64,000 bases of DNA from a phage. Made by a program: the position numbers and the translations under genes. Within the stretch, counting starts at the first letter, position 1. The number at the start of each line of letters is the position of its first letter. This document shows, one piece after another, positions 35,745 to 52,909 of the stretch. Under the pieces are notes generated by a model. It saw nothing but the letters and a program-made list of their open reading frames with translations, was not told the DNA's origin and did no database searches. Location of the stretch: NCBI GenBank assembly GCA_019326865.1, contig GCA_019326865.1_4101.1; one strand, 5' to 3'.

Positions 35745-35823
35745 AAATATTATCACAGTACTATTGACATAGATTGATAGTACTGGCATAATAGATTTTA
35801 TTAAAACAACTGAGGAAATTAAA

Positions 35824-36003
35824 ATGGCTATCATCGCAAAAACTGAAATCATCGGCCTGGATTCTATCATCATGACGTTTGAAGATCAAAAAGGTATGTA
35901 TGTAGTTTCCTATGGTGATTATGTTCGGGAGTATGAAACGGTAGACGAAGCCTTTGAAAGTTACATTCGCCAGGTGAATAAAGCATACGACGATTACCGC
36001 TAA
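35824..36003 (+). CDS. hypothetical protein (59 aa), paralog of 32870 gene
   Basis: Same promoter block as 32790-32869. Confidence 0.5.
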   Translation: MAIIAKTEIIGLDSIIMTFEDQKGMYVVSYGDYVREYETVDEAFESYIRQVNKAYDDYR

Positions 36004-36104
36004 AATATATTACCAGTACTATCAAAGCTATTGACAACGTTTGATAGTACTGTATAATAAGTTTTATCAACTGTAGTTAACTTAACAAAAGAGAGAGAAA
36101 CAAA

Positions 36105-36248
36105 ATGATCGCACTGGATTCATTCATCGATGCAGTTCTGGCAAAAACTGGCGAGGATCTGACCGCAGAACAATACGCGATGATCGAGCAATGCCAGCAA
36201 GACGGTAAATCGGTGAAAGATACTGTTAAGATTATCCGCAAGATGTAA
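36105..36248 (+). CDS. hypothetical small protein (47 aa)
   Basis: After promoter with AGTACTATCAA inverted repeat around TTGACA. Confidence 0.4.
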   Translation: MIALDSFIDAVLAKTGEDLTAEQYAMIEQCQQDGKSVKDTVKIIRKM

Positions 36249-36354
36249 GATTATAAGCCCATTAGTTAACGCTGGTGGGCTTTAATCATTTACCCTATAC
36301 AATGCCAGTACTAAACCGTTTATCTCGTTAGAATGCATTACAGGACGTTTAACA

Positions 36355-36552
36355 ATGATTAGCATGAAATCAGTACAAAAACAAATAGAAACATTATCAA
36401 AAATTAAACGTAAACAGTACTCATTAGAATATAATATCAATGGTAACTATCATCTAATGAAAGAGAATAATTTTATCGTCATTGATGAATCATTGCAAAT
36501 TATTAGTATAGTACTGAAAGCATTAATTAATGATAGAAAAAGGTTAAAATAA
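36355..36552 (+). CDS. hypothetical protein
   Basis: ORF. Confidence 0.45.
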   Translation: MISMKSVQKQIETLSKIKRKQYSLEYNINGNYHLMKENNFIVIDESLQIISIVLKALINDRKRLK

Positions 36553-36809
36553 TGGCAGTAGGATTCGCGAAAGATGGAGCCGAGCAAGATGAGATTAACG
36601 CAGTTATTCAAGCCGCCGTTAACCACGCTAGAAAGCAAATTAACGCACAAATAGAATCACTGATACATTGCCTCGACTGCGGCGATAAAATCCCTGAGAA
36701 TCGCCGACAGGCTGTTAAGGGATGTAAGTACTGCATAACCTGCCAGGAAGATCATGATAGTACTTTTAAACGAGATCCGCGTAATTGTTGGCATAGATCT
36801 ATGAGATAA
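36552..36809 (+). CDS. TraR/DksA-like C4 zinc-finger protein
   Basis: C-x2-C-x13-C-x2-C-x2-C with IPENRR motif. Confidence 0.55.
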   Translation: MAVGFAKDGAEQDEINAVIQAAVNHARKQINAQIESLIHCLDCGDKIPENRRQAVKGCKYCITCQEDHDSTFKRDPRNCWHRSMR

Positions 36810-36873
36810 AAAGTAATTGACAGTACTGAAAGATAGTGTATAATGTTTTATATCTTAACTGAGGATAGAAATC

Positions 36874-37230
36874 ATGGGAATACAACATATCACGCTGACC
36901 ACTGACAATGGCGAGATCACTGGTTATCAAGTACAGGGCAAAGTAGCACAATTGCAGTACTGGTTTGTTAAACGTGGAATCATTGCACCGGATCTTGATT
37001 ATGACCGTGTAGCGTTTATTGATTCTCTTTATGTTGATCCTGAAAGTCGGGGCAATGGTGAAGGTAACGAATTAATGAATGCCTTTATTGATGCCGCCGA
37101 TGATTCAGATTGTATCATTTTAGAATGCGATACGGGAGAAGATAACGCCTTCAATCTTAAAGAATGGTATGAAGGTTTCGGATTCGAAGTACTGATCGAT
37201 AGTGAATATCCTATCATGATTTTATCATAG
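36874..37230 (+). CDS. hypothetical acidic protein
   Basis: ORF with SD gagga. Confidence 0.6.
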   Translation: MGIQHITLTTDNGEITGYQVQGKVAQLQYWFVKRGIIAPDLDYDRVAFIDSLYVDPESRGNGEGNELMNAFIDAADDSDCIILECDTGEDNAFNLKEWYEGFGFEVLIDSEYPIMILS

Positions 37231-37319
37231 TACTAAAAAAGTAATTGACAGTACTATCAGATAGTATATAATGTTTTACATAGAGGGGAAACATCTTCCC
37301 CTACTAAGAGGAAAGAAAA

Positions 37320-37508
37320 ATGGAAAACTTATCAAGTATTTTAGTACAAGATGATTTTGGTAATCCTGGAAGTGCTATCATTGTTCGGGGTAATAAAGCA
37401 ACGTTTGTTATTGCTGGTGGACCTGTACAGCGTAGCATTAAAAACAATGCTGTTACTATTAATAATGTACGCTATCGCTTAGATAAAGAATTGATTCATA
37501 AACTGTAA
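37320..37508 (+). CDS. hypothetical protein
   Basis: After promoter + hairpin ggggaaacatcttcccc. Confidence 0.55.
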   Translation: MENLSSILVQDDFGNPGSAIIVRGNKATFVIAGGPVQRSIKNNAVTINNVRYRLDKELIHKL

Positions 37509-37535
37509 TATTAATTTAATAGAGGATAACAATAA

Positions 37536-37859
37536 ATGTACATTCATACTACTATCACAAAGGAAGTCCGTTGCCAGTTCGAAAGTATTCCGGGCGTATG
37601 TTTCATCACTGGTACGTTTTCCCCTGGTGATCGTGATAATCCAGTACTGTTACAGTTACGCCATCCATTATGGGATAAAGCATTTGATCTACCGTTGAAT
37701 GAATTCGCAACTACTGCTGAAAAGTACATTAAAAATATTCGCGAGAATGATCGACTATTCATTAATGCTTTTAGTGATTCCGCGTTAAGCGAGATCCACG
37801 GCGTATTGGTTGCAATCATGGAATCAATGGAGAAAACTAAATTCAAACAAGGTGAATAA
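37536..37859 (+). CDS. hypothetical protein
   Basis: ORF with SD gagga. Confidence 0.6.
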   Translation: MYIHTTITKEVRCQFESIPGVCFITGTFSPGDRDNPVLLQLRHPLWDKAFDLPLNEFATTAEKYIKNIRENDRLFINAFSDSALSEIHGVLVAIMESMEKTKFKQGE

Positions 37860-37943
37860 AAACTATTGACAATGTAATCTAGTACTGTATAATAAGTTAC
37901 ATGAAGGGGAGAAATGATTCTCCCTACTAAGAGGAAAGAAAAA

Positions 37944-38156
37944 ATGCAAGGTCAACTAATCGTTCGTAAATGGTCTGATACTAATGAAAAACCGTGGGAT
38001 GTACAATACATCGGACCGGATGGGGTATCACGTTATCAGCCTGGCGTAACGCATAGTACTGAGCAATATGCCGCCGCTCATCGTGAACGCCTGTTAGAAT
38101 CTATGCAACAGGGTTTAGGTGAAAAATTCATTCAAGATCATTGGCTGAAAGATTAA
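37944..38156 (+). CDS. hypothetical protein
   Basis: Start after leader hairpin ggggagaaatgattctccc. Confidence 0.55.
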   Translation: MQGQLIVRKWSDTNEKPWDVQYIGPDGVSRYQPGVTHSTEQYAAAHRERLLESMQQGLGEKFIQDHWLKD

Positions 38157-38242
38157 AAAGTACTTGTGTAGTATAGAAAATAAAGTATAATGTTTAATAC
38201 AGGAAGGGGAATAGTTCCCCTCCTAACAAAAAGGAAAGTAAC

Positions 38243-38416
38243 ATGATTCATGTAGAATTGTCAGTACTGAGAGATTTGTTTTATCGGATGGGTACTACTG
38301 GCGAATATCCGAAGGGTGATACTGCAAAACTTTTTGTATCTCTCGACTTATGGCAACGCGAACAATTAGTAATGTCGTGGCGTAAAGGTAAAGCAGATCG
38401 CGAGGTGAAAGCATGA
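38243..38416 (+). CDS. hypothetical small protein (57 aa)
   Basis: After promoter + hairpin. Confidence 0.45.
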   Translation: MIHVELSVLRDLFYRMGTTGEYPKGDTAKLFVSLDLWQREQLVMSWRKGKADREVKA

Positions 38417-38562
38417 AAGAATTTTTATTCGAAGTAGTTTTTATTGGTGTAAGTAGTCACCAATTGATTCGCTCAAGTGGTTACAATGTTTGCCAGGCAT
38501 GGAATAACATTAAACAAATGTACCCGAACGCTATCACATATCGCAACCCAAAACAAGTTTAA
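38413..38562 (+). CDS. hypothetical small protein (49 aa)
   Basis: ATGA-coupled to upstream ORF. Confidence 0.35.
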   Translation: MKEFLFEVVFIGVSSHQLIRSSGYNVCQAWNNIKQMYPNAITYRNPKQV

Positions 38563-38577
38563 AAATAATTAAAAAAA

Positions 38578-38667
38578 GGATTGACTTCGGTCAGTCCTTT
38601 TTGCTATTATATATTCATTGAGAGATAGCTCACTAGCCCACAGGGTGCGGGAGTGTATCTATTATAT
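38578..38667 (+). repeat. ~90-bp repeat element copy 2
   Basis: Matches 34851 copy. Confidence 0.75.
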
Positions 38668-38894
38668 GTTGGTGGGTGTATTATCTAGTACTGAAAACTA
38701 TTTGATAAAAAGTACTTGCATTGTACTTAGAATCAAGTATAATGTTTTACATCAGGACAGGGAACGAAATAAGTAACTTCCCGTTAAGTAGCCCAGGAGT
38801 AAGGCATACGAAAAACTCCCCTGATAAAATAGTTTGACAATAGTTTTAAGTACTGATAAAATAATCACATCAACTACTGATAAGGAAACATAAA

Positions 38895-39170
38895 ATGCGG
38901 GTTCTTCTGACAGCTAACGAAATCGAGCAAGTACTTACTACTAACCTGGAACAATGGAAACGTGAAGCAGATATCCAGGCGGTTCAATTGTTAAATGAGA
39001 AGTTAACGCCGGATGATTTAAGTAAGATTGTAGATCCTCAATTCTACGAAGATATTCACGACACCGCGTTAAGCGTCGAGGATGTACTAGATAAACACTA
39101 CATTGATACTAATTTACAGGGTTACGGTCGTAAAAATTTTATTACTATTCACGACATTTACAATAATTAA
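38895..39170 (+). CDS. hypothetical protein
   Basis: ORF after promoter. Confidence 0.6.
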   Translation: MRVLLTANEIEQVLTTNLEQWKREADIQAVQLLNEKLTPDDLSKIVDPQFYEDIHDTALSVEDVLDKHYIDTNLQGYGRKNFITIHDIYNN

Positions 39171-39256
39171 GTATTGACAAAGTATCTTAGTACTGTATAA
39201 TAGTTTACATCAAGTGAGGGGAATGGTTCCCCTCCTAACAAAGAGAGAAATAAAAA

Positions 39257-39439
39257 ATGGCTAAGTGCACTATCTGTAAGAAAGAAATAGTATTAGTTCC
39301 AAGTGCCCGTGAGCGTGCAGCTCGGTTCGGTGGCAAAGCGTCAGACTATACAAAAATGTTTACTACTCATGCAAATTGCCAGGTAGCAAAACGTTCACAA
39401 GAAAGCGTAGAATTAATGCGTAAACTTTCCAAAAAATAA
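39257..39439 (+). CDS. hypothetical small Cys-containing protein
   Basis: Promoter block duplicated at 39440-39525. Confidence 0.55.
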   Translation: MAKCTICKKEIVLVPSARERAARFGGKASDYTKMFTTHANCQVAKRSQESVELMRKLSKK

Positions 39440-39525
39440 GTATTGACAAAGTATCTTAGTACTGTATAATAGATTACATCAAGTGAGGGGAAACGGTTCC
39501 CCTCCTAACAAAGAGAGAAATAAAA

Positions 39526-39849
39526 ATGACTATGATCCTTGCCCAGAAAGTAGAACTGAAAATTGTAACTTCCTTTGACATTAAAGTTAATCGCTGGACT
39601 GATCGGAACGGTAATACTTACCACTCTTGCTACGTGTCTGCATTGATTGGTGATCGTTGGGAAGACTTGGGACACGAAACCTTTACATACGGTTACGGTA
39701 CGCAAGGCGAATACACTGGTTTGGAGATCATTAAAGAAACCGTTATAGGTTTCAACCCGAAAGAAAAAGTTATTCACCGCATCGAAAAAGAGATTAATAA
39801 AGAAATAACAGTTCGCTACTACGATGTAAAACGTAAGAAAGACATGTAA
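39526..39849 (+). CDS. hypothetical protein, paralog of 33165 gene
   Basis: Shared C-terminal VKRKKD motif. Confidence 0.6.
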   Translation: MTMILAQKVELKIVTSFDIKVNRWTDRNGNTYHSCYVSALIGDRWEDLGHETFTYGYGTQGEYTGLEIIKETVIGFNPKEKVIHRIEKEINKEITVRYYDVKRKKDM

Positions 39850-39935
39850 TAGAATCCATTTAAAGTACTATTTGACATTACACAGATAGTACTTTATAAT
39901 AGACTCTAACTTGTAGTATTAACTTAACTAATAGG

Positions 39936-40340
39936 ATGTATACCATGATTACTAAATTCTACGCTACCCGTGAAGCTGCCCGTATTGTTGCACGCGAGGA
40001 AGGAGCGGCATTTAAAGACATGGGCAAAGATGCACCGAAAGGCCAACGCTGGAGCGTACAGTTCAAAGAAATCTCTGATATTGTGAATTCACCTGAACCA
40101 GTACTGACAGCAGCAGAACAGAAGAAAGCTGATGAACTGGCGGCAATTCTTAACGCTCAAGATGAATTCGTCGAGGGTGCTGATATCCAGGTTGTAGTAA
40201 ATTCGAATGCATGGACTCACGCGGATCATCTGGCTAACCTGAAGCGTCCAAGCGTATTGATTCGCAACCATAAAGAGATCCGACACGACCGCAAGGGCAA
40301 CCGTGTTACTGTATACAGTAAACGCCGCCAGGTTATCTAA
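39936..40340 (+). CDS. hypothetical protein, paralog of 27512 gene
   Basis: Shared KFYATREAAR..FKDMG..RKGNRVTVY; alternative start 39945. Confidence 0.6.
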   Translation: MYTMITKFYATREAARIVAREEGAAFKDMGKDAPKGQRWSVQFKEISDIVNSPEPVLTAAEQKKADELAAILNAQDEFVEGADIQVVVNSNAWTHADHLANLKRPSVLIRNHKEIRHDRKGNRVTVYSKRRQVI

Positions 40341-40362
40341 TACCTAGCAGTACTAACAACAC

Positions 40363-40387
40363 GGCGGGATCTGTTCCCGCCTTTTTT
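40363..40387 (+). terminator. terminator ggcggga-tctg-ttcccgcc + T-run
   Basis: GC stem then tttttt. Confidence 0.65.
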
Positions 40388-40402
40388 ACAGGATAAACTA
40401 AA

Positions 40403-40657
40403 ATGATTAAGGTAAAACTATCTAAAGATAATATCTTGCGGGTACACTATAAAGCCCCTCAGAGAATCATCACAAAGGCCGTACAGCTTGCGAATGAGTT
40501 TATTAATGGTAATCTATTACCTAGGAAGTTAAGCAACGGAAAACTGCGTGTAATCGATGTAGACACTAACAACAGAATAGTAATAGAGAATACCGGAAAG
40601 ATAAACCTATATGAACACCAACAATATAATAAGAAAATAAAACTAATTAGTCGTTGA
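40403..40657 (+). CDS. hypothetical basic protein
   Basis: ORF. Confidence 0.55.
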   Translation: MIKVKLSKDNILRVHYKAPQRIITKAVQLANEFINGNLLPRKLSNGKLRVIDVDTNNRIVIENTGKINLYEHQQYNKKIKLISR

Positions 40658-40711
40658 CAGTACTCAAATGTTTTAGTACTATATATCTATACCAACACGG
40701 AGAGAAACAAA

Positions 40712-40930
40712 ATGAAATTATCTAAAATCGAAAAGAAAACTATTGACGTAGCTATCCAACATGGTTACACCTTTCGTAATGATTTACATTTTACCAATTT
40801 TCAACAAGGGTATCGTACTATTAAAAAACTAATTGACAAAGGTTTATTAGTTAAAGTAGACAACGGCAACGGCGTTGAATATCAACCAACACAGGACGCA
40901 TTTAATTTTAAGAAATATAATATTATCTAA
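40712..40930 (+). CDS. hypothetical protein
   Basis: ORF with SD ggagag. Confidence 0.55.
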   Translation: MKLSKIEKKTIDVAIQHGYTFRNDLHFTNFQQGYRTIKKLIDKGLLVKVDNGNGVEYQPTQDAFNFKKYNII

Positions 40931-40987
40931 TTGACAGTACTCAAATGTTTTAGTACTATATCTATACCAACACAGGAAAAAAACAAA

Positions 40988-41572
40988 ATGCGTAATTATA
41001 CTAAATTCATCCGTACACTGTCAGAAATGGAAACCAACAAAGAGATCTTGACAGCTTGTCGGTTAGCTGGTCTGGAGATCATCGGTGCGGGGTCTTCCCG
41101 TATTGTATTCGCTTTAAATGATCGGTTAGTGATTAAGGTCGCGAATTGTGATGCGGGTGTAGAACAAAATGAAACAGAATGTAAAGTATGGAATTTTTTA
41201 GATTATGACCGACCTCAGTTGAAACAGTTCTTTGCTAAAGTACATATGCATTTAAGCGATCCTGATAATATGTTTATTGTTATGGATCGGTTGAGTACTG
41301 CAAGTAAAGGCAGTGTAAAGCACGTTAACGCGTGCAACGAATTAAAGTACAATATTAAACGTAATGCAATCGAACGCCAGCACCGCTTTGCTGATGCACT
41401 ACAACACGTCGATGATACATTATCAACACTAACGATCAGAGATATCAGAAAACAGAATATCGGACAGGATCGAAATGGACTGATTAAAGTACTTGATTAT
41501 GGTTTAACCCGCAATATCTGGAATCAGTACTATAAAAAGCGTGATGTAAAAGCCGTAACTATAACACGATAA
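40988..41572 (+). CDS. hypothetical protein, kinase-fold-like (IIGAGSSRIVF, VIKV, DIRKQN, LDYG)
   Basis: Gly-rich loop, lysine motif and catalytic/DFG-like motifs in canonical order; start at MRNYTKF. Confidence 0.5.
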   Translation: MRNYTKFIRTLSEMETNKEILTACRLAGLEIIGAGSSRIVFALNDRLVIKVANCDAGVEQNETECKVWNFLDYDRPQLKQFFAKVHMHLSDPDNMFIVMDRLSTASKGSVKHVNACNELKYNIKRNAIERQHRFADALQHVDDTLSTLTIRDIRKQNIGQDRNGLIKVLDYGLTRNIWNQYYKKRDVKAVTITR

Positions 41573-41586
41573 AAAAGATTAAAAAA

Positions 41587-41675
41587 GGGATTGACTCCGG
41601 TCAGTCCCTTTGCTATTATATATTCATTGAGAGATAGCTCACTAGCCCACAGGGTGCGGGAGTGTATCTATTATA
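41587..41675 (+). repeat. ~90-bp repeat element copy 3
   Basis: Matches 34851 copy. Confidence 0.75.
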
Positions 41676-41787
41676 TAAGTATTGAGTACTGAAAACTATT
41701 TTTAAAAAGTACTTGCATTGTACTTAGATTCAAGTATAATGTTTTATATCGAGAGGGGGAACGTCCCTGATAATAAGGAATAAAATC

Positions 41788-42009
41788 ATGACTACAATGA
41801 CTTGCATTTACGCTTCCAATCTTCTGAATGATGCTGTTTTTAATGTTGATTCAGAATATCAATGTTATCGGGATGAAAATAAAAAAGTTTTTGTAGTTGA
41901 TAATAATGGTTTCCATATTGAATTACAATCCGGCTTCACTGGTGTTGATGGTAAATCAGTATGGGGCGTACAGGATGATAAAGGCACATATCATTTTAAA
42001 CGTAATTAA
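41788..42009 (+). CDS. hypothetical protein
   Basis: ORF after promoter. Confidence 0.55.
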   Translation: MTTMTCIYASNLLNDAVFNVDSEYQCYRDENKKVFVVDNNGFHIELQSGFTGVDGKSVWGVQDDKGTYHFKRN

Positions 42010-42124
42010 GTATTGACAAAGTATCTTAGTACTGTATAATAGTTTACATCAAGGGCAACGGGAAGTTTTAAAAACTTCCCTATAGGGAGAACAGTTCTCC
42101 CCGATACTAAAAGGAAACAAAAAT

Positions 42125-42397
42125 ATGTCTAGCTACTCCGCTACTATGATCATTAAAGATATGAACGGTAATCCTACTGCTGCTGGTGGATCATTTGGAA
42201 ACATTAACTTAGATGGTCGGTTAACCATGCAATCAGCCATCAATGCAGCGAAAGAAGTTTTTAAGAATGAATGCACTGTAAGTAAGCTGGATTATATGGG
42301 ATTCGCTATCGAGAAAACTAATCGTTTTGTGAACTACAAAAATCCACTGATGATTGATACTAACCTGAAAGCTAACGAAGTGGAATACTTATTATGA
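42125..42397 (+). CDS. hypothetical protein
   Basis: ORF after promoter with two leader stem-loops. Confidence 0.6.
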   Translation: MSSYSATMIIKDMNGNPTAAGGSFGNINLDGRLTMQSAINAAKEVFKNECTVSKLDYMGFAIEKTNRFVNYKNPLMIDTNLKANEVEYLL

Positions 42398-42585
42398 CAG
42401 TTGAAGAAGTTAAAAAAGTACTGGCAGTTCTACGCTATCATAACCATTGCAAGGTGAAGAATGATTCTGATTATCTTGATTCATCCCTTGAGGAAGACAC
42501 ATTAAACGCAATAAGCTATATGCAAACATTATTAAAACGTATGACCGAAAAGAATAGACCGGACTATATCGGAAATAAAATTTAA
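42394..42585 (+). CDS. hypothetical protein
   Basis: ATGA-coupled. Confidence 0.5.
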   Translation: MTVEEVKKVLAVLRYHNHCKVKNDSDYLDSSLEEDTLNAISYMQTLLKRMTEKNRPDYIGNKI

Positions 42586-42671
42586 AAAGTACTTGCATTG
42601 TAGTTAGATTAACGTATAATGTTTTATATCGAGAGGGGAAATGGTTTCCCCTCAAGTCCAGGAGATACACA

Positions 42672-42935
42672 ATGAACACTATCGAAATCACTATCAATGC
42701 TCACGTATACGACAACGTAGTACTGCAAACTACTATGACCGCTAATGATACCAGTACTTTGCGGAATACTGTTATTAGTGCTGTATGTGCCGCTATCGGT
42801 GATGTCGCCCTGGAAAATGCAAAACACGTAAACGATGGTTTCACTATGTGCAAGCGTGATAACGCAAAACATATCATCGTAGAAGGTTACGGCGGTGTAG
42901 AATATAATGTTTATATGAAAAAAGTACTTGCATAA
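42672..42935 (+). CDS. hypothetical protein
   Basis: ORF after promoter + hairpin. Confidence 0.6.
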   Translation: MNTIEITINAHVYDNVVLQTTMTANDTSTLRNTVISAVCAAIGDVALENAKHVNDGFTMCKRDNAKHIIVEGYGGVEYNVYMKKVLA

Positions 42936-43002
42936 TAACTAAAACAAAGTATAATGTTTTGCATAGGGGGAGATATCCTCCCCCACTAAAAGGAGTAATA
43001 AA

Positions 43003-43227
43003 ATGGCTAACTTTGATGAACTGATGCGGGAAGTAGCTAACCTGGCAGAAGAGAAGAAATCATTCGATTCTATCTATAACACCTCTTACCGTGATTCAGT
43101 ACTGGCATGTAACCAGGATCAAAAAGATGAACTAATCGCCACCTATTATGAAGCATGGAAGTACTACCGACAATGGGAGAAAGAAGAAAGTGAGTCTACC
43201 ATTGACGGCCTCAATAATCTAATCTAA
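43003..43227 (+). CDS. hypothetical protein
   Basis: ORF after promoter + hairpin gggggagatatcctccccc. Confidence 0.6.
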   Translation: MANFDELMREVANLAEEKKSFDSIYNTSYRDSVLACNQDQKDELIATYYEAWKYYRQWEKEESESTIDGLNNLI

Positions 43228-43302
43228 AGTTTTATTTCAGTACTATTGACATAGATTGATAGTACTGATATGATAACTTTACTATCTACAAGGGGAAACA
43301 TC

Positions 43303-43560
43303 ATGGAACAATTCACACAATATCGGGTAAATCCTCAAGCTATGGCATACGTAGAAGACCATAAAACGTTACCAGTACAAACACCAATTAAAGGCCATAT
43401 CTATCGTGCAATGTCATGGAATCCGGCCCAGTATGGCTATAACACCGTAGCCGTGGGCATGTACTGCGGCAATGGTGAATGGTTTGATCCTAACAATCCG
43501 ATTGCACTTGATAGTACTGAAAAAATGAAATGGGCCGACTACATCGAAGATATTTCATAA
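43303..43560 (+). CDS. hypothetical protein
   Basis: Start at MEQFTQY. Confidence 0.55.
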   Translation: MEQFTQYRVNPQAMAYVEDHKTLPVQTPIKGHIYRAMSWNPAQYGYNTVAVGMYCGNGEWFDPNNPIALDSTEKMKWADYIEDIS

Positions 43561-43650
43561 AAATTATTTGACAGTACTAACCAGTAATGTATAATGTTTT
43601 ACATAGAGCGGGGGAATAGTTCTCCCGCCAATAGTTTGGAGTAAAACATT

Positions 43651-43851
43651 ATGTCTATCGCTATCGCCCTGGTCGAAGTACTGAAAGAAGCTAAAGCCAA
43701 CCTTATCGATGTACAGATTAAGGAATTGCAAAATGGCTTAATCGGCTGTACTTGTACCGCTGGTGGCCCGTCAGACTATCGGGAATTCGAATCACTTGAA
43801 TCGATGGTCCGTTATCTTACAATCATCGTAGAAGATTGGAGAATCATCTAA
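43651..43851 (+). CDS. hypothetical protein
   Basis: ORF after promoter + hairpin. Confidence 0.55.
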   Translation: MSIAIALVEVLKEAKANLIDVQIKELQNGLIGCTCTAGGPSDYREFESLESMVRYLTIIVEDWRII

Positions 43852-43869
43852 CAAAAAAAAAGAATAAAA

Positions 43870-43955
43870 AGGGATTGACTCCGGTCAGTCCCTTTGCTAT
43901 TATATACGCATAGACAAAAACTAGCCCACAGGGTGCATAGGTGTATCTTAAATAT
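43870..43955 (+). repeat. ~90-bp repeat element copy 4 (diverged 3' half)
   Basis: Matches 41587 copy at 5' end. Confidence 0.65.
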
Positions 43956-44097
43956 ATAGTTAATAACGGTGAGTAACTATCTGCTGGTGGGGTGAAAACT
44001 ATTAATAAAAAGTATTGACAAAGTATATCAGTACTGCAATAATGTATCTCGTAGGGCGGCAATGGTGCGACGGTCCACAAAGTTAGGAGATTCACAA

Positions 44098-44430
44098 ATG
44101 AGTACTTCAATCGCTATCGTTAAAGCTTTCATCCGTACCAACGTTTCATCTGTATTCATTGACGGACTGGATCGGGAAGTAGAATACTCAATCATTATCG
44201 CACAAACTGCAAACGGTGCTCGGTACATCCTTAATAATAGTGAAGCAAATCACTACTACTTCACTAAAGCCACTGGCTTTAAACGCATCGATGCTGATGT
44301 AGTATACGCTAAGATGAATAAGCTGGTAGACAAGATTAACGCGAAAGGTACTATCGATTTACAGTACTGGACCGAAACCGATCCAGAATATGGATCTCAC
44401 CGCTACCTGAATCCAGGTATTAAAATGTAA
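44098..44430 (+). CDS. hypothetical protein
   Basis: Start at MSTSIAIV with SD aggag. Confidence 0.6.
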   Translation: MSTSIAIVKAFIRTNVSSVFIDGLDREVEYSIIIAQTANGARYILNNSEANHYYFTKATGFKRIDADVVYAKMNKLVDKINAKGTIDLQYWTETDPEYGSHRYLNPGIKM

Positions 44431-44519
44431 AAAGTACTTGCATAGTACTTAGATTTAAGTATAATGTTTTTCATAGAGAGGGGGAAATGGTTCTCCCTCC
44501 TAAATTAAGGAGTTTTATC

Positions 44520-44921
44520 ATGACCTTCTCAATCACTTCCTTCGCTGACGTTTTAGTACTGGCTCGGACTTTCGGCAAAGCTGGCCTTGAGCACGCTGTA
44601 AGTAATGGTTATATGCACCCGGAATATTGCCGCATTATCGGTAGCTGTAAACGTTGGGCCGTGTCCCGTAATATTGAGATTGAAAACTTCAATGATGGTA
44701 ACAACGAATATACAGTTGATGCAGTATTCGAATCCGTTGATCTCGGCGGTATCTATAACACTAACCTGAATGATGTGCGTATTGTTCGCACGGGGTTCGG
44801 TGCTTATGATGTATCTATCCGTGAAGCGATGGACAAGGGATACATTAGCAAGGATCAGTTAGCTTACATTATGCAGCAGACTAAAGAGCGTAATGAAGCA
44901 CGCACTATCTTAGGTCTGTAA
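44520..44921 (+). CDS. hypothetical protein
   Basis: Start at MTFSITSF with SD aaggag. Confidence 0.6.
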   Translation: MTFSITSFADVLVLARTFGKAGLEHAVSNGYMHPEYCRIIGSCKRWAVSRNIEIENFNDGNNEYTVDAVFESVDLGGIYNTNLNDVRIVRTGFGAYDVSIREAMDKGYISKDQLAYIMQQTKERNEARTILGL

Positions 44922-44989
44922 GCATTACACATCACTAAACATCATAGGCCGCTCTCTAGCGGCCTTAACTATATCAGGAGTACATACAC

Positions 44990-45199
44990 ATGATCTATAC
45001 AGTATACAGTGTTCTAGGCACTATTGCAGGTGTACACGATAATGTCGATGATACTATGATTACAGTACTGCAACAGGTTCCACTAAAGCCTAAGACAGTT
45101 AAGAAGATGACCGCACGACTAACCAGGGCGACGGCTGGCGTGGAAGTATGGCAGGACTACGGGGATACACAGGTAATCGTAAGCGTAACGAGGGATTAA
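44990..45199 (+). CDS. hypothetical protein
   Basis: ORF with SD ggag. Confidence 0.5.
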   Translation: MIYTVYSVLGTIAGVHDNVDDTMITVLQQVPLKPKTVKKMTARLTRATAGVEVWQDYGDTQVIVSVTRD

Positions 45200-45448
45200 T
45201 ACGTAAAATGATTTAGTACTGATTCAGAAAAAAGTCAAGGCGTTTTTAAAATTATGCGTTAAAAAAATGCATAGGTAATCCCTTGACTTTTTTGAAATAA
45301 AAGGGATTGGACTATGGCAAAATGCGTAGGGGGGCTAAAGTGCGGGTAACTTAGCGGCTTCGATAAAGGGGTATTACGAATAAAATGTTATTGACTTTTT
45401 ATATAAATCGTATAAAATATGATTGATAATAATTTTAAGGGAGTCCCT

Positions 45449-45646
45449 GTGCGTATTTTAACTCAAGCAGAACACCACGAAAGACTTATCAATAACATGG
45501 CTATGATAATGTATAAGTCCCATGACCGTGGTATTGCCTATAAGCGTGAATTAGTACTGGAACTATTCATTGGAACTAACTTTCAGGAAAGGTATGTCAA
45601 CGATTGGATTTGGTATTTAATTGAAGATATAACGAGTAAACTATGA
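45449..45646 (+). CDS. GTNYQ-family small protein, member 1 (GTG start after SD aagggag)
   Basis: N-terminus VRILTQAEHHERL aligns with family M.IL..EY; C-terminal GTNFQERYV. Confidence 0.55.
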   Translation: MRILTQAEHHERLINNMAMIMYKSHDRGIAYKRELVLELFIGTNFQERYVNDWIWYLIEDITSKL

Positions 45647-45837
45647 TCATTTTAAATAAAGAAGAATATCAAGAACTGTTACGTAAAAACTTTGTAAAGA
45701 TTTATAATACAGACACACACGTAGAACGAATGGAGTTATACCTTTTGATTACATTGGGAACTAACTATCAGGAAAGATGGGTGATTCAATATATGGATAC
45801 ATTGAAAAATAAAATATTGTCCACGAGGAAACAATGA
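45643..45837 (+). CDS. GTNYQ-family small protein
   Basis: C-terminal LGTNYQERWV; ATGA-coupled. Confidence 0.65.
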   Translation: MIILNKEEYQELLRKNFVKIYNTDTHVERMELYLLITLGTNYQERWVIQYMDTLKNKILSTRKQ

Positions 45838-46043
45838 AAACTATAACACGAACCCAATCATTCGGACTTATCTTGAAATACATGGACTTAATGGTGGATA
45901 TCAGCAAAGACCTGCCTAAAACTGCAATTGAAGTTGCAAGAGCAGAGATCCGCATGTTGGCTGTACTGAACACAAACCATCAGGAAGAGTATGTTGACGA
46001 TTGGATTCGATTTTTAATAGAAGATATTAAGAGTAAACTATGA
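45834..46043 (+). CDS. GTNYQ-family small protein
   Basis: Family motif; coupled. Confidence 0.65.
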   Translation: MKTITRTQSFGLILKYMDLMVDISKDLPKTAIEVARAEIRMLAVLNTNHQEEYVDDWIRFLIEDIKSKL

Positions 46044-46252
46044 TTATATTAACACCTGAAGAATATAAGAAACGTTTTAATTCTGTCCAGACTGAAATAT
46101 TACTTATATACCTTTCAAATGCAGATCTTAACTTATCAAGGGTAATGGAGAAGGATTTACTTATGGGTGCATTTTTGGATACAGACTTTCAGGAGTATTA
46201 TGTAGGGGAATACTTTATTGCACTTCAGAACCACATTAAGAGTAAACTATGA
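46040..46252 (+). CDS. GTNYQ-family small protein
   Basis: Family motif; coupled. Confidence 0.65.
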   Translation: MIILTPEEYKKRFNSVQTEILLIYLSNADLNLSRVMEKDLLMGAFLDTDFQEYYVGEYFIALQNHIKSKL

Positions 46253-46464
46253 TTATTCTAGAAAAATCATATCAATATACTGAACGCATCGCTGCCAGAC
46301 AACTTGAAATCCTCATAATATACGAAGAGACTTCTGATTTAAACTTAGCCGAGGTATTGGAAAATGAAATACTTTTGGGTGCATTCTTGGGAACAGACTA
46401 TCAGGAGTATTATGAGGAAAAGTATTTGTCATCTCTTGAGAAATACGTCAGGAGCAAACTATGA
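46249..46464 (+). CDS. GTNYQ-family small protein
   Basis: Family motif; coupled. Confidence 0.65.
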   Translation: MIILEKSYQYTERIAARQLEILIIYEETSDLNLAEVLENEILLGAFLGTDYQEYYEEKYLSSLEKYVRSKL

Positions 46465-46688
46465 AACATTTAAGTAATATAGAGAAGAATAAAATTATCA
46501 TTGCTGTAATAAACAAATATTTTACACTTCCACAAAAAGAATGTTTATCTATAAGGGAACACAGGATAAACACCACCGAGATTCGCATGTTGGCTGTACT
46601 GGGGACTAACTTCCAAGAAGGCTATGTTCATGAGCACATCGTTGCACTCACTAATTACATAATGGACAAATGCAATGAACATCATTAA
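46461..46688 (+). CDS. GTNYQ-family small protein
   Basis: Family motif; coupled. Confidence 0.65.
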   Translation: MKHLSNIEKNKIIIAVINKYFTLPQKECLSIREHRINTTEIRMLAVLGTNFQEGYVHEHIVALTNYIMDKCNEHH

Positions 46689-46899
46689 TAACTTTGAATA
46701 CGAGGCCCGTGTTAAGAGTGCCAGAAAAAAAGAGAACACCATTTACTTCACTATGATGTACTTACAATGGACTGAAATTGAAGAAAAGGTTGCTGAAGTA
46801 TGGATGTTGGAATTCATGGGGACGCAGTATCAGAATAGGTTTGCGGGTGAGTATATCAATGTTCTTATGAAACAAATAGAAAGGAAGGAAAAGAACTAA
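46675..46899 (+). CDS. GTNYQ-family small protein
   Basis: Family motif (MGTQYQNRF). Confidence 0.6.
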   Translation: MNIINNFEYEARVKSARKKENTIYFTMMYLQWTEIEEKVAEVWMLEFMGTQYQNRFAGEYINVLMKQIERKEKN

Positions 46900-46984
46900 T
46901 GGAGGGATGCTGTACTTTATTGGAACTTTTATATATTCATGAACACATAGTTGCCCTCACAAATCTAATAAAGGATAAATGTAA
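46900..46984 (+). pseudogene. decayed fragment of a GTNYQ-family gene
   Basis: Translates in pieces to LYFIGT.. and EHIVALTNLIKDKCK, matching C-terminus of 46461 gene, without intact ORF. Confidence 0.5.
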
Positions 46985-47242
46985 ATGAAACACTTGACTG
47001 ATGATGAACATGAAACTATAATTCGTAAACTAACCCCCATCACAAGGATAGTCTACGGTGATCCCAGCCTCACATGGAACCAAATGCGAGCTAAAGTTAA
47101 TGAGCTATGGTTGCTGTACTTTATGGGGACTCAATATCAAGATAAGTTTTGCACAGAATATATCGAACAATTAACGAATGTTATACAGGATAAACTAAAT
47201 GAACGAATTGTGGAAAAATATGAAAACTTTATCAAGCATTGA
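46985..47242 (+). CDS. GTNYQ-family small protein (extended C-terminus; usual coupled stop lost)
   Basis: Family motif; junction aaactaAATGaa instead of aaactATGA. Confidence 0.6.
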   Translation: MKHLTDDEHETIIRKLTPITRIVYGDPSLTWNQMRAKVNELWLLYFMGTQYQDKFCTEYIEQLTNVIQDKLNERIVEKYENFIKH

Positions 47243-47471
47243 GTATCAGACTGCCCTCTTCTCTCTTCTAAACACCCTCCGCACGAACAATAAACTTTAT
47301 AATTCACGTGAAGCTGATATTGTCAACGCTGATGTATATCTTAATAAATTTATAGGGACTAACTATCAAGAACTGTTTGTTTTACGATATATCTCTGCAC
47401 TAAGAAACGAAATATCAGATAAAACCCGCCAAGCCAGAAGAGAATGGAAGAGACAATGCAACAAAGACTAA
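47199..47471 (+). CDS. GTNYQ-family small protein
   Basis: Family motif FIGTNYQELFV. Confidence 0.6.
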   Translation: MNELWKNMKTLSSIEYQTALFSLLNTLRTNNKLYNSREADIVNADVYLNKFIGTNYQELFVLRYISALRNEISDKTRQARREWKRQCNKD

Positions 47472-47707
47472 ATCACAAAATGTATTGTAAACTATTACAG
47501 AATCTAGGACAAAAACACTATGATACAGTATCTGAAATATTACCCTATGATATCATGCGTTTAATTCATAGTGAGGCAGAGATGCTTGTACTGATGACCG
47601 GTACTGATAAAACAGCAATCACCAGATCGATAGAGCAATATATTGATGCACACTGTCAATGTATTAGAACTGAGATATGGAGGCGAGTAAATGAAAGTAC
47701 TGAATGA
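47444..47707 (+). CDS. GTNYQ-family-like small protein (diverged motif MTGTDKTA)
   Basis: Position in array; weak motif. Confidence 0.45.
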   Translation: MEETMQQRLNHKMYCKLLQNLGQKHYDTVSEILPYDIMRLIHSEAEMLVLMTGTDKTAITRSIEQYIDAHCQCIRTEIWRRVNESTE

Positions 47708-47906
47708 GTATCAGTATCATTGGAGGTTACAAACTATAAGAGGGAAAGTTGTTAGTATTTCTTTAGACAAGTCTATTGCACAAGAGGACAAATGTGTTAT
47801 AATAGCTGAAATGAAGTTGGGTGTATTTGTAGGAACAAACTATCAAAACATCTACACTGACGTATTATTAAGTGCCTTACGCAACAAGGTGTTATCCAGA
47901 GAATGA
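47691..47906 (+). CDS. GTNYQ-family small protein
   Basis: Family motif. Confidence 0.65.
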   Translation: MKVLNEYQYHWRLQTIRGKVVSISLDKSIAQEDKCVIIAEMKLGVFVGTNYQNIYTDVLLSALRNKVLSRE

Positions 47907-48121
47907 GAAAATTAATAGGTTACGAATATGTTAAGCTTCTGAAAACCTGTAGTATTAGCAGGGTAAAGATTCAATCTGATAAGAGTATTCCTGTTGAACT
48001 AAAGTACGCAATGATGGCTGAACTTTATGTAGGTGCACTATTGGGGACAAACTATCAACAAATGTATGTAGACCTATGGGTTGACGCTCTACTGAAAGAG
48101 GTCCAAAGTAAATGCAAATGA
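47903..48121 (+). CDS. GTNYQ-family small protein
   Basis: Family motif. Confidence 0.65.
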   Translation: MRKLIGYEYVKLLKTCSISRVKIQSDKSIPVELKYAMMAELYVGALLGTNYQQMYVDLWVDALLKEVQSKCK

Positions 48122-48333
48122 TTCATTTATCTTACTATGAATATCAAAAACGTTTAAATGCATCAAGGGATATAAGGATTAAAATCTACAATAACAAAAG
48201 ATTGAAATCTGAAGCCAAAAAAATCAAAATGATAGAAGCTGAATTATGCAACTTCCTTGGGACGAACTATCAGGATGATAAGGTAACAAACTATCTTAGA
48301 GAACTAATGATTAGTATCAAGAGTAAATGTTAG
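48112..48333 (+). CDS. GTNYQ-family small protein
   Basis: Family motif. Confidence 0.65.
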   Translation: MQMIHLSYYEYQKRLNASRDIRIKIYNNKRLKSEAKKIKMIEAELCNFLGTNYQDDKVTNYLRELMISIKSKC

Positions 48334-48337
48334 GCAG

Positions 48338-48595
48338 ATGTACATGAAAATGATTAAATTATCTCAAGCAAAATATAAAGAACGCCTGGAAAAAATTACA
48401 CCTAGACTTAATGAAATCCATCACGGAGAAGTCATTAAACACGGAAATAAGATGATTATGAAACTTGAGTTAAAGGTGGGTGCATTCATAGGAACAAACT
48501 ATCAGGAGTATTATGTAGATGAATACATAATCGCACTTAAGAGATACATTGGAAGAAAACTATATCTACAAACTAAAGAATTGTATTGCAAATAA
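48338..48595 (+). CDS. GTNYQ-family small protein
   Basis: Family motif. Confidence 0.65.
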   Translation: MYMKMIKLSQAKYKERLEKITPRLNEIHHGEVIKHGNKMIMKLELKVGAFIGTNYQEYYVDEYIIALKRYIGRKLYLQTKELYCK

Positions 48596-48876
48596 ATGCA
48601 AGGATAATGAATATGAAAATGATCAATTTAAGTAAAGATGAATATACCGAGCGTATGACAAAAATTACGCACAAACGTAATACAATCTATCACAACCCAG
48701 AAATTCAACACAGTAAGAAAATGATTATGATGCGTGAGTTAAAGATGGGTGTATTCTTGGGAACAAACTATCAAGATACAGAAGTAAATCGCTTAATCGC
48801 GGAGTTACTACTGGAAATCAGAGGTAAGCTGTACTTTCATCAAATGACCCAACCACTGAGGTGTACTAAGAAATGA
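48586..48876 (+). CDS. GTNYQ-family small protein
   Basis: Family motif. Confidence 0.65.
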   Translation: MQINARIMNMKMINLSKDEYTERMTKITHKRNTIYHNPEIQHSKKMIMMRELKMGVFLGTNYQDTEVNRLIAELLLEIRGKLYFHQMTQPLRCTKK

Positions 48877-49088
48877 TCAACATCACATTGCAAGAAAGAT
48901 TCATCCGAATCAACTATGCAATTACCAAATTAGATGCTACTATAGGATTCCAAAGTCTACCGTTCCAAACAAGAATGATATTAGAGTGCGAAGCTAAATT
49001 GGGTGTACTGTTAGGAACGCAACACCAACAACGATATGTGGAAATCTGGATTGATCTTTTAACCCAAAATGTACATGAGAAAATGTAA
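48873..49088 (+). CDS. GTNYQ-family small protein
   Basis: Family motif (LGTQHQQRYV). Confidence 0.6.
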   Translation: MINITLQERFIRINYAITKLDATIGFQSLPFQTRMILECEAKLGVLLGTQHQQRYVEIWIDLLTQNVHEKM

Positions 49089-49325
49089 ATGAAAAATGAA
49101 ATGATATACTTAACGAATGAAGAGTTTCAAGAGAAGATGTTAAAAATCTATGATAATACTCTTGAGTACGTTCCAAATCAATCAATATATGAAGTGTCTG
49201 CGAATGTATTATTTCAGAAGCTACCATACGTTCTTGGAACGGATAAACAAGAATTTATGGTCAAAAATATGATTGAACATCTTATGATGAGTATTAAGGA
49301 AAAAGTGAATGCAAAAGAAAAATGA
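49089..49325 (+). CDS. GTNYQ-family small protein
   Basis: Family motif (LGTDKQEF). Confidence 0.6.
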   Translation: MKNEMIYLTNEEFQEKMLKIYDNTLEYVPNQSIYEVSANVLFQKLPYVLGTDKQEFMVKNMIEHLMMSIKEKVNAKEK

Positions 49326-49572
49326 AATGATATACTTAACACCTGCTGAGTTAACAGAAAGACTAGTTAAATCCAGAAGATATACAAATCAACTTCCTCA
49401 CAACCCAAATCAAACCCCAGCGGAAAGGAGTGCAGAAGTTTTATTCCAATCACTACCATACCTTCTTGGAACTAATAGACAAGAGTATCATATCGAACGT
49501 ATAATTAAATATCTTAAAATTACTATTAAGGAAAAAGTAAATGCTCAAGAATTTAAAAATCCTAACAGTTAA
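49309..49572 (+). CDS. GTNYQ-family small protein
   Basis: Family motif (LGTNRQEY). Confidence 0.6.
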   Translation: MQKKNEMIYLTPAELTERLVKSRRYTNQLPHNPNQTPAERSAEVLFQSLPYLLGTNRQEYHIERIIKYLKITIKEKVNAQEFKNPNS

Positions 49573-49783
49573 TGAATATCATAAGATTGTAATGAAAACT
49601 AATAGTGCAATTTCTAAAAAATCAAACCCAAAGTACATACTGGAACACACATTTGAAGAACGTCAATTAGCTTTAGTTGAAGCAAAACTTCTTGCACTCT
49701 TAGGAACAAACTATCAGGAAGAATACATCAGAAAACTAATATACCTTTTAACTAAACACATCAGGAAAAGAAAAAAAGCATGA
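49541..49783 (+). CDS. GTNYQ-family small protein
   Basis: Family motif. Confidence 0.65.
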   Translation: MLKNLKILTVNEYHKIVMKTNSAISKKSNPKYILEHTFEERQLALVEAKLLALLGTNYQEEYIRKLIYLLTKHIRKRKKA

Positions 49784-50010
49784 AGCACTTGACAGATGAT
49801 GAACATGGGCTTATAGTAATGGATGTAATCAACATCGAATACAAAAAGTTGATACGCTATCGTTGTTATGAAGATAAGCAACTAGTTCTAGCAGAACAGA
49901 AGTTGTTTCGACTCTTAAACACAAACTTCCAAGCACAATACGAAGAATCGTATATGTACCTTTTGGCGAGGAAAGCAAAAAGAGATTATGAAAATTTTAA
50001 GCAAAGGTGA
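49780..50010 (+). CDS. GTNYQ-family small protein
   Basis: Family motif (LNTNFQAQY). Confidence 0.6.
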   Translation: MKHLTDDEHGLIVMDVINIEYKKLIRYRCYEDKQLVLAEQKLFRLLNTNFQAQYEESYMYLLARKAKRDYENFKQR

Positions 50011-50209
50011 TTCAGTAATATTACTTATAGAGAGTTCAAATAAATTCTTAAACATAACACTGTCTGATATAGATGAAGATGATAAAGAAGTACTGAGAGC
50101 AGATTTAAGAGTACTGTTACATCTCGGAACAAACCTACAAGAAGAATATGTAGAGTACTACATTGATGAACTTAAAGAATCAGTACTGAGAAGATGCAAA
50201 TGCGAATGA
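49988..50209 (+). CDS. GTNYQ-family small protein
   Basis: Family motif. Confidence 0.6.
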   Translation: MKILSKGDSVILLIESSNKFLNITLSDIDEDDKEVLRADLRVLLHLGTNLQEEYVEYYIDELKESVLRRCKCE

Positions 50210-50421
50210 TTACCGACGAAGAATACCTAACAATTATAAATGGATTGTTTTTGAAGTTGTTTGTTATTAACACATCAGATATACCAGATATGGATAAAAT
50301 TATTAAGAGAAATGAAATCTATGTTCTAGCTACCCTGGGAACTAACTATCAAGAATGCAATATTAATGATTATATTAATACACTTAAAGGAGCGATTGAA
50401 CTAAAATGCCAAAACCACTAG
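50194..50421 (+). CDS. GTNYQ-family small protein
   Basis: Family motif. Confidence 0.65.
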   Translation: MQMRMITDEEYLTIINGLFLKLFVINTSDIPDMDKIIKRNEIYVLATLGTNYQECNINDYINTLKGAIELKCQNH

Positions 50422-50621
50422 GAACAGCAGAATACATTGAACTCATGGGATTACACTTCTCATCCTTTCAGAAACTTATGCGAGAATCAAAGAATGATTT
50501 AGAATATACCATCAGAGGTTCAGATTTAAGAATGCTTCTCACCCTAGACACAGATTCCCAAGAGAGATTTGTCAATGAGCATATTAGAGCACTTTTAATG
50601 GAAATTAAAAGTAAACTATGA
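50406..50621 (+). CDS. GTNYQ-family small protein
   Basis: Family motif (LDTDSQERF). Confidence 0.6.
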   Translation: MPKPLGTAEYIELMGLHFSSFQKLMRESKNDLEYTIRGSDLRMLLTLDTDSQERFVNEHIRALLMEIKSKL

Positions 50622-50833
50622 AGGTAATATCAAACCAAGAGTACTTGGCACTATTCAGGAAGAATAATCACAAATATATGGCACTTGATTCAAGAACTGA
50701 TATAGGGGAACTTGAAAAAAATCTTTTGCGTTCAGAGATGATAGTACTGACACTCTTAGGAACACAACATCAAGAGAGAACTGTTGATTCATATATTGAG
50801 ATTCTTAAGAAGCTTATACAGGAAAAACTATGA
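50618..50833 (+). CDS. GTNYQ-family small protein
   Basis: Family motif. Confidence 0.65.
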   Translation: MKVISNQEYLALFRKNNHKYMALDSRTDIGELEKNLLRSEMIVLTLLGTQHQERTVDSYIEILKKLIQEKL

Positions 50834-51060
50834 GAATCATAACACAAACAGACATATTTAAGTTAGCAAGGGAACATACATCTGAAATTGATGCTATAGT
50901 ATCAAAAAGTTACAATGACCCTTATACACAAGATGTGCACTACAATGAATTATGGGTGTATATACTTTTAGGTACAAATTATCAAGAGCAAGCAGTACAG
51001 AAGTATTTGGCAGCTTTAAGTACTGCTACTGCTAATAGTATAGGTATTAAAAAATGCTAG
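50830..51060 (+). CDS. GTNYQ-family small protein
   Basis: Family motif. Confidence 0.65.
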   Translation: MRIITQTDIFKLAREHTSEIDAIVSKSYNDPYTQDVHYNELWVYILLGTNYQEQAVQKYLAALSTATANSIGIKKC

Positions 51061-51290
51061 TACTGACAGAACTAGAAATGTATCATAGATTTAATAAGTA
51101 CTATCATTTACTTAAGCCTATACAGAGGATTAAATGTCCATTTGAAGAGAAACAGGTATTAATTTATGAGCATAAGTTATTTGTATCATTAGGTACGAAT
51201 GAACAAGAGTATTATTTGAAGTTGTACTTAATTACTTTAATTGAATTGATTAATCACAAAACACAGAAAGCTAAGAAATCTAAAAAATGA
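51054..51290 (+). CDS. GTNYQ-family small protein
   Basis: Family motif (LGTNEQEYY). Confidence 0.6.
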   Translation: MLVLTELEMYHRFNKYYHLLKPIQRIKCPFEEKQVLIYEHKLFVSLGTNEQEYYLKLYLITLIELINHKTQKAKKSKK

Positions 51291-51625
51291 AAACTAATAT
51301 TCAACTCAAGGTATACATATCTTATGAATCTATATACATCAAATGCAGTCTATGTAAAGATGTAATGGATTATAAAGGTAAGCCATTCACAATTACTTAC
51401 AGTCTAACAGGAGGCTTTTATATATCTTTTGTTGATTACGAAAATAAAATATACAAGCACATTGATATTAAAGATTTAAGTACCTTGTCAGATGAGGAAT
51501 ACTTTCAAGAATCATTAGTATGGGATTTAGAGTTTCCTATGACATTAGTACACAAAATGATAGTACTAATGAAAGAAACTAAACCTGAGCCGAGTGGTTA
51601 TGAAGAATTCATTATTGAGTATTAA
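51287..51625 (+). CDS. FQxSLV-family protein (EEYFQESLVWD) embedded in GTNYQ array
   Basis: Motif seen in translation. Confidence 0.6.
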   Translation: MKTNIQLKVYISYESIYIKCSLCKDVMDYKGKPFTITYSLTGGFYISFVDYENKIYKHIDIKDLSTLSDEEYFQESLVWDLEFPMTLVHKMIVLMKETKPEPSGYEEFIIEY

Positions 51626-51637
51626 GAGTACTGATAT

Positions 51638-51853
51638 ATGAAAAGATTATCATACAAAGATTACAGTAAACTTATCAGTACTTTACAACCAGAAATTAGA
51701 AGAATTAATTATCTTCCTATATCTAACGAAGAACGTGTAGTACTGAAAAATGAGTTAATATTAAAACGCACAGTAGGTACTAACTATCAAGATAATAGTG
51801 TTTGCGATTTAATTAGAGGGTTAATGATCACAATAAAGGCCAAGTGCTATTGA
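51638..51853 (+). CDS. GTNYQ-family small protein
   Basis: Family motif. Confidence 0.65.
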   Translation: MKRLSYKDYSKLISTLQPEIRRINYLPISNEERVVLKNELILKRTVGTNYQDNSVCDLIRGLMITIKAKCY

Positions 51854-51917
51854 CAGTACTTGACGGAGCTTTTCATTACTGATATAGTATACTAACGTTA
51901 ATCATAGGGTAGAAATT

Positions 51918-52163
51918 ATGTTAAAATTTTTAAATTTCCTTATCGTCTTGTGTATTGTTCTTGGGATTGCACCGTTTGTACTGGTGTATATGGATTCAGA
52001 TGAAATGCAAAAGATGAATTGCACAAAGACGGGACAGAGTAGAGAAGAGACGATTCTTATGCCTGTTACTGTTATTGTTAATAATATGCCCATTACAAAC
52101 ATGGTCCCTACCCTAACGACAACGTACCAGTACTCTTGTACAGACGGGGAGAGGTGGAGATGA
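51918..52163 (+). CDS. small protein with N-terminal hydrophobic segment
   Basis: ORF after TTGACA-like promoter. Confidence 0.45.
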   Translation: MLKFLNFLIVLCIVLGIAPFVLVYMDSDEMQKMNCTKTGQSREETILMPVTVIVNNMPITNMVPTLTTTYQYSCTDGERWR

Positions 52164-52480
52164 AATTTAATATAGCAAAAACATCGAATGTATGTATATT
52201 TGGTTATGCAGAAGAGTTAGGTGATATTGACATTCTTTTGTACAAAAAGGATGGTGTTATGCATTTCAAGTACCAGGATGAAGAGGCAGACAATTATCTT
52301 TTGCCTAATTTAGTACAAATGCAGGAAGAGGAATTATTCCAGTACAGCTTAGTATATGACATTGATATTTGCACGATGCCAGTACTAATTAATATTCAAA
52401 AAGTGATGCTCGATGTGTTTGATAGGCTAATACAAGGCACACAAGGAAGAACCATATATGTCAATGTACAAGACAATTAA
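52160..52480 (+). CDS. FQxSLV-family protein (EELFQYSLVYD)
   Basis: Start at MKFNIAK with SD ggag. Confidence 0.6.
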   Translation: MKFNIAKTSNVCIFGYAEELGDIDILLYKKDGVMHFKYQDEEADNYLLPNLVQMQEEELFQYSLVYDIDICTMPVLINIQKVMLDVFDRLIQGTQGRTIYVNVQDN

Positions 52481-52673
52481 TCAAGAATGGAAGAATCAAA
52501 AGTACAGAGAATTCAATAGGAATTTTACAAAAGACGAATTGAATATAAAAACAACAGAATTTGATATGTTTATTTTTCTCGGAACACGTTCTCAGGAGCA
52601 ATTTGTTCATTATTATATAAATTCGTTGCGAGCGGAGATAGTATGCAAAACAAAGGGTATTATAAAAAGGTAA
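52458..52673 (+). CDS. GTNYQ-family small protein (LGTRSQEQFV)
   Basis: Family motif, diverged. Confidence 0.55.
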   Translation: MSMYKTINQEWKNQKYREFNRNFTKDELNIKTTEFDMFIFLGTRSQEQFVHYYINSLRAEIVCKTKGIIKR

Positions 52674-52909
52674 ACCAACATTTGTACGCTACAAAGTACA
52701 GGGATTTTTGTTTAAAGGGTGGTGATGAAGATTTTTCTTTGCGATTATCAGAATTTAATCTGTTATTTTATCTTGGTACATCGGAACAAGAAGAAATGGC
52801 ACAGAAATTTCTCAATCACCTTGTACAAAAAATTAATATGCAAATTTTGATGCTTAAGTTACAGGATGAGATAAATGAATATGAACCCAACAATAGTACA
52901 GGATCTTAA
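52643..52909 (+). CDS. GTNYQ-family small protein (LGTSEQEEM)
   Basis: Family motif, diverged. Confidence 0.55.
   Translation: MQNKGYYKKVNQHLYATKYRDFCLKGGDEDFSLRLSEFNLLFYLGTSEQEEMAQKFLNHLVQKINMQILMLKLQDEINEYEPNNSTGS

Follow-up and report, generated by a model that had tools for sequence, protein, structure and literature searches.

Why should a phage devote 29 consecutive genes to diverged versions of a single protein of about 70 amino acids? The question is raised by a stretch of 64,000 nucleotides (here called the window) from an Asteriusvirus, a jumbo phage of E. coli similar to 121Q, PBECO4, G17 and UE-S1. Hua et al. (2017, mBio; PMC5646251) mentioned a tandem array in 121Q in a single sentence, which probably refers to the same locus; the orthologs of the array are 121Q genes 319-346, with 24 full copies plus one truncated by our own count. 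The remark gave no coordinates, did not define the family and did not go into its structure, evolution or function, and it called the copies "very similar", whereas the 121Q paralogs are ~24% identical.

Composition of the array

The original prediction placed about 29 small ORFs at 45449-52909, and these coordinates proved accurate: there are 29 ORFs on the same (+) strand, coding for 64-96 aa (Table 1). The shared blocks that had been described were also confirmed, an N-terminal M-x-x-L-[TS]-x-x-E-Y and a C-terminal (L/I)GT(N/D)xQE...L...I..K. The similarity is not confined to these blocks, as it would be in a compositional artefact, and the copies align end to end. A family HMM run against 962 six-frame segments of the window matched the 29 ORFs, one 18-aa remnant and nothing else, and it gave no match in 20 shuffles of the array region. 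Single-linkage BLASTP joined 27 of the 29 copies in one group, and leave-one-out HMMs recognised 28 (E 1e-6 to 1e-22), copy 29 being the weakest secure member (E 1.4e-6). Copy 10 failed in this last analysis and is tied to the others just by a colinear hhalign profile-profile match (E 1.3e-4, probability 54%), which is why it is counted as a probable, very divergent member. As judged from alignments and profiles, the family is thus represented by 28 secure ORFs of the 29, by copy 10, and by one decayed remnant between copies 7 and 8 (HMM match 46932-46985). At that place G17 keeps a truncated 52-aa copy (G17_00606), and alignment to it reveals further deletions in the remnant, with motif codons among those lost.

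The paralogs are far apart from each other. Their mean pairwise protein identity is 24% (maximum 53%), nucleotide similarity is almost nil (best 68-82% over 70-236 nt), and the nearest paralog is a neighbouring copy for 12 of the 29.

Table 1. Features of the array and its surroundings (window coordinates).
Feature	Position	Strand	Basis or detail
DTR-equivalent region (direct terminal repeat of related phages)	24993..45351	+	alignment to fEgEco12 DTR ends
P1, sigma70-type promoter-like, array head	45391..45418	+	TTGACT-16-TAAAAT, conserved
Shine-Dalgarno GGAG, 5 nt ahead of copy 1 GTG	45440..45443	+	
Copy 1, GTG start, 65 aa	45449..45646	+	ORF, alignment, HMM
Copy 2	45643..45837	+	ORF, alignment, HMM
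Copy 3	45834..46043	+	ORF, alignment, HMM
Copy 4, protein modelled, pLDDT 98.2	46040..46252	+	ORF, alignment, HMM
Copy 5	46249..46464	+	ORF, alignment, HMM
Copy 6	46461..46688	+	ORF, alignment, HMM
Copy 7	46675..46899	+	ORF, alignment, HMM
Decayed family remnant (pseudogene)	46900..46984	+	HMM match, G17_00606 alignment
Copy 8	46985..47242	+	ORF, alignment, HMM
Copy 9, family-consistent start 47220	47199..47471	+	ORF, alignment, HMM
Copy 10, canonical GTNYQE motif lost; ortholog starts at 47456	47444..47707	+	hhalign
Copy 11	47691..47906	+	ORF, alignment, HMM
Copy 12	47903..48121	+	ORF, alignment, HMM
Copy 13, family-consistent start 48118 (gives ATGA junction)	48112..48333	+	ORF, alignment, HMM
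Copy 14	48338..48595	+	ORF, alignment, HMM
Copy 15, longest ORF from TTG, in-frame ATGs downstream	48586..48876	+	ORF, alignment, HMM
Copy 16	48873..49088	+	ORF, alignment, HMM
Copy 17	49089..49325	+	ORF, alignment, HMM
Copy 18	49309..49572	+	ORF, alignment, HMM
Copy 19	49541..49783	+	ORF, alignment, HMM
Copy 20	49780..50010	+	ORF, alignment, HMM
Copy 21	49988..50209	+	ORF, alignment, HMM
Copy 22	50194..50421	+	ORF, alignment, HMM
Copy 23	50406..50621	+	ORF, alignment, HMM
Copy 24	50618..50833	+	ORF, alignment, HMM
Copy 25	50830..51060	+	ORF, alignment, HMM
Copy 26	51054..51290	+	ORF, alignment, HMM
Embedded non-family ORF, 112 aa, second small paralog family	51287..51625	+	phrog_13866/15629
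Copy 27	51638..51853	+	ORF, alignment, HMM
P2, sigma70-type promoter-like, conserved in relatives	51860..51888	+	TTGACG-17-TATAGT with TG
Embedded non-family ORF, 81 aa, hydrophobic N-terminus	51918..52163	+	phrog_8826 (no function annotated)
Embedded non-family ORF, 114 aa, paralog of 51287-51625	52136..52480	+	phrog_13866
Copy 28	52458..52673	+	ORF, alignment, HMM
Copy 29	52643..52909	+	ORF, alignment, HMM

Operon architecture and genome position

Most copies had been predicted to be joined by ATGA stop/start junctions, and this stood in part: 23 of the 28 junctions do overlap, but ATGA itself is found at 10 (11 if copy 13 is read from its family-consistent start). Altogether 25 junctions overlap or lie within 4 nt, the remaining three gaps being of 85, 347 and 604 nt, and at the overlapping ones purine-rich Shine-Dalgarno-like motifs are located within the last codons of the preceding gene. 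A promoter was expected at ~45390-45418, and a promoter-like site was found there (P1), kept in six of seven genomes with TAAAAT and TATTAT as -10 variants. The start of copy 1 is correct as well, its GTG following a GGAG and corresponding to an ATG at the same position in relatives; an alternative start at ATG 45419 was rejected, as it would abut the -10 box. The single conserved head promoter with its Shine-Dalgarno sequence, the overlapping junctions and the lack of any + strand terminator-like site inside the array support the idea of one long coupled operon. The second conserved promoter-like site, the intergenic P2, probably drives the distal part including copies 28-29. Overall, a sigma70 promoter scan gave no enrichment over shuffles in this AT-rich region.

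The related phage fEgEco12 has an experimentally confirmed direct terminal repeat (DTR) of 20,993 bp (PMC13070987). Its position 1 aligns to position 24,993 of the window and its DTR end (20,993) to ~45351; mapped in this way, the inner end of the repeat falls ~40 bp upstream of the P1 -35 box. By this alignment the array is placed as the first transcription unit inward of a left DTR of ~20 kb. On the DTR side there are dense sigma70-like promoters ahead of small genes, a density that fits an early region. The window also holds several further tandem paralog families.

It could be argued that the array proteins are packaged in the virion, either inside the head or "inner body" or as proteins ejected to act on the host at entry. 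An inner body occurs in both 121Q and phAPEC6, several small proteins of virions are as yet unassigned (PMC5646251, PMC7247149), and small proteins can evade detection by mass spectrometry. However, the 62 phAPEC6 virion proteins detected by this technique, which include one of 4.7 kDa, comprise no product of the 28 array genes of that phage (gp462c-gp489c), and the array lies among sigma70-type promoters, at a great distance from the structural module, which makes packaging extremely unlikely.

The protein family and its predicted structure

The family had not been recognised from the sequence, and this holds: there was no match in Pfam, NCBIfam, PADLOC or PDB sequences, and profile and fold searches led to no well-characterised family. 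However, PHROG 4148 exists and is the same family, matched end to end by 28 of the 29 copies (best E 3e-26) and also by distant members in RaK2-like phages and metagenomes. It is a cluster labelled "unknown function", with no function, structure or array description attached, and is accompanied by a fragment family, PHROG 28039. The family amounts to just 90 clusters in a set of 1.84 billion representative proteins.

The array proteins show neither a signal peptide nor transmembrane character, their GRAVY is mostly negative and their pI ranges from 4.4 to 10.0. AlphaFold2 modelled the copy 4 monomer as a small all-helical bundle with high confidence (pTM 0.83; pLDDT in Table 1), for which fold comparison gave generic structural matches alone. 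The family is accordingly modelled as soluble helical-bundle proteins of ~70 aa. A natural fusion (P0091), relevant to the packing of neighbours, was modelled with a pLDDT of 41.

The L-G-T-N-Y-Q turn could be seen as the recognition element of a helix-turn-helix (HTH), in which case these would be small nucleic-acid-binding regulators redirecting host or phage transcription. At the motif level, a hydrophobic residue followed by G-T-(N/T)-x-Q and a helix does resemble the turn and recognition helix of the 434 and LacI repressors, and several copies are basic proteins whose tails are rich in lysine/arginine. However, about half of the array proteins are acidic or neutral, the helices are predicted to be long, at 15-21 residues, with T48 beta-bridged to residue 2, profile-profile comparison with Cro/cI HTH domains gave a probability of 0.2%, and none of the 29 matched any Pfam HTH model at E <= 1. 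We regard such regulators as very unlikely.

Conservation, selection and turnover

In all copies the hydrophobic core is conserved, as is one polar cluster located at an end of the bundle; besides the core, the conserved positions are E8/Y9/E39/G47-T48-N49-x-Q51-E52/K69, and the remaining ones have an entropy >3 bits. Pooled, gene-wide dN/dS of the array copies was 0.30-0.36, with no gene-wide positive selection. Within orthologous lineages omega was 0.21 for the scaffold and 0.44 for paralog-variable positions, indicating that the latter are also under purifying selection within each lineage. The flanking small genes have similar values (0.15-0.40), so that no sign of an arms race can be seen at this resolution.

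Orthologous copies are syntenic in seven other phages. Copy number among the eight genomes varies from 22 to 30, and the copies, 224 in total, represent 35 cassette types. Only 13 types are present in all eight genomes and 9 more in seven, while 13 are dispensable in at least two. For the same phage pair, identity swings from 100% to ~40% between neighbouring slots, and decay is limited to one remnant among 30 slots. In this comparison the repertoire differs between phages through gain, loss and replacement of cassettes. RaK2 has ~5 scattered weak members, and RaK2-like Klebsiella phages likewise hold few scattered copies. All this depicts a lineage-specific multigene family evolving by gene birth and death. 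The original view of an old, maintained family and not a recent amplification is supported by the near absence of nucleotide similarity between paralogs, the synteny and the omega values.

For Hua et al. the array of 121Q was no more than a tandem duplication adding to genome expansion (PMC5646251). Along these lines the array might be largely redundant DNA (duplication filling an enlarged capsid, their "ratchet" idea) or provide dosage of one function, with no individual roles for the copies, and the other tandem families of the window, together with selection no stronger than on adjacent small genes, would fit. However, the copies are old, their order is kept across eight phages, selection reaches even paralog-specific positions and a single slot has decayed; amplification for dosage would keep the copies alike, yet they are not. 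We find this explanation quite improbable.

Tight stop/start overlap is also the classic layout of stoichiometric complexes, and the paralogs could be subunits of one hetero-oligomer (e.g., a cytoplasmic scaffold, filament or coat with interchangeable subunits) made in roughly equal amounts through coupling. The common polar cluster and core could serve as a shared subunit interface, and the universal and nearly universal cassette types point in the same direction. However, an obligate complex would not tolerate such variation in copy number, dispensable types and swapping of slots for ~40%-identical cassettes, and the wide pI spread is also against it, so we consider it unlikely. That the tandem paralogs vary in both number and type speaks more for alternative versions, selected for diversity, than for one fixed complex, the same argument made for polyimmunity arrays (PMC3113570).

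A possible role early in infection

The explanation that we favour, if tentatively, is that the array encodes a set of small proteins, expressed early, that act as alternative binders or inhibitors of variable host factors. From its position and promoter motifs, host RNA polymerase would transcribe the operon right after DNA entry, and translational coupling would yield all the copies together. Each paralog may match its own variant within some polymorphic class of E. coli/Salmonella proteins; the most plausible candidates for this class are effectors, of defence or toxin type, or other targets of host takeover. The breadth of the repertoire of alternative binders would therefore widen the range of hosts overcome. 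On the other hand, the conserved polar cluster suggests a function common to all copies, which different targets leave unexplained, and known anti-defence loci usually hold unrelated genes, not 29 paralogs. In sequence and fold searches no known inhibitor, immunity or anti-defence protein proved to be homologous or specifically similar in fold, and no transcriptome of any Asteriusvirus was found in the searchable literature.

Comparison with known systems

Many small genes are clustered at the leading end of the genome in SPO1 (gp37-60, within the terminal redundancy) and T5 (the pre-early genes, within the DTR), where they are transcribed by host RNA polymerase and aimed at host shut-off or defence. 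The genes of these modules, however, are unrelated and have individual promoters, an arrangement that resembles the DTR-equivalent region of the window, not the coupled paralog operon. Lineage-specific tandem paralogs near genome ends are also typical of ASFV (MGF110/360/505) and poxviruses (terminal host-range families, K3L "gene accordions"), their copy number varying between isolates and their products being implicated in host range and immune evasion. Viruses, hosts and proteins are unrelated in this case, and the host-range links are experimental there, whereas for the array a host-range role is proposed. At the protein level, the colicin/pyocin DNase immunity proteins Im2/7/8/9 are all-helical bundles of similar size (~85 aa), in which specificity comes from variable surface residues on a conserved scaffold, a layout like that proposed for the array proteins.

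The polyimmunity arrays (SUKH and other Imm families; Zhang et al., 2011; PMC3113570) are likewise made of tandem, diverged paralogs of one small fold, whose number and type vary among related genomes and have been read as alternative binders against polymorphic partners. None of the array copies has a SUKH or Imm Pfam match, and no toxin or nuclease gene linked to the array was found. Compared to these arrays, the one described here is phage-borne, translationally coupled and much longer, with 29 copies versus up to about 6 in tandem.

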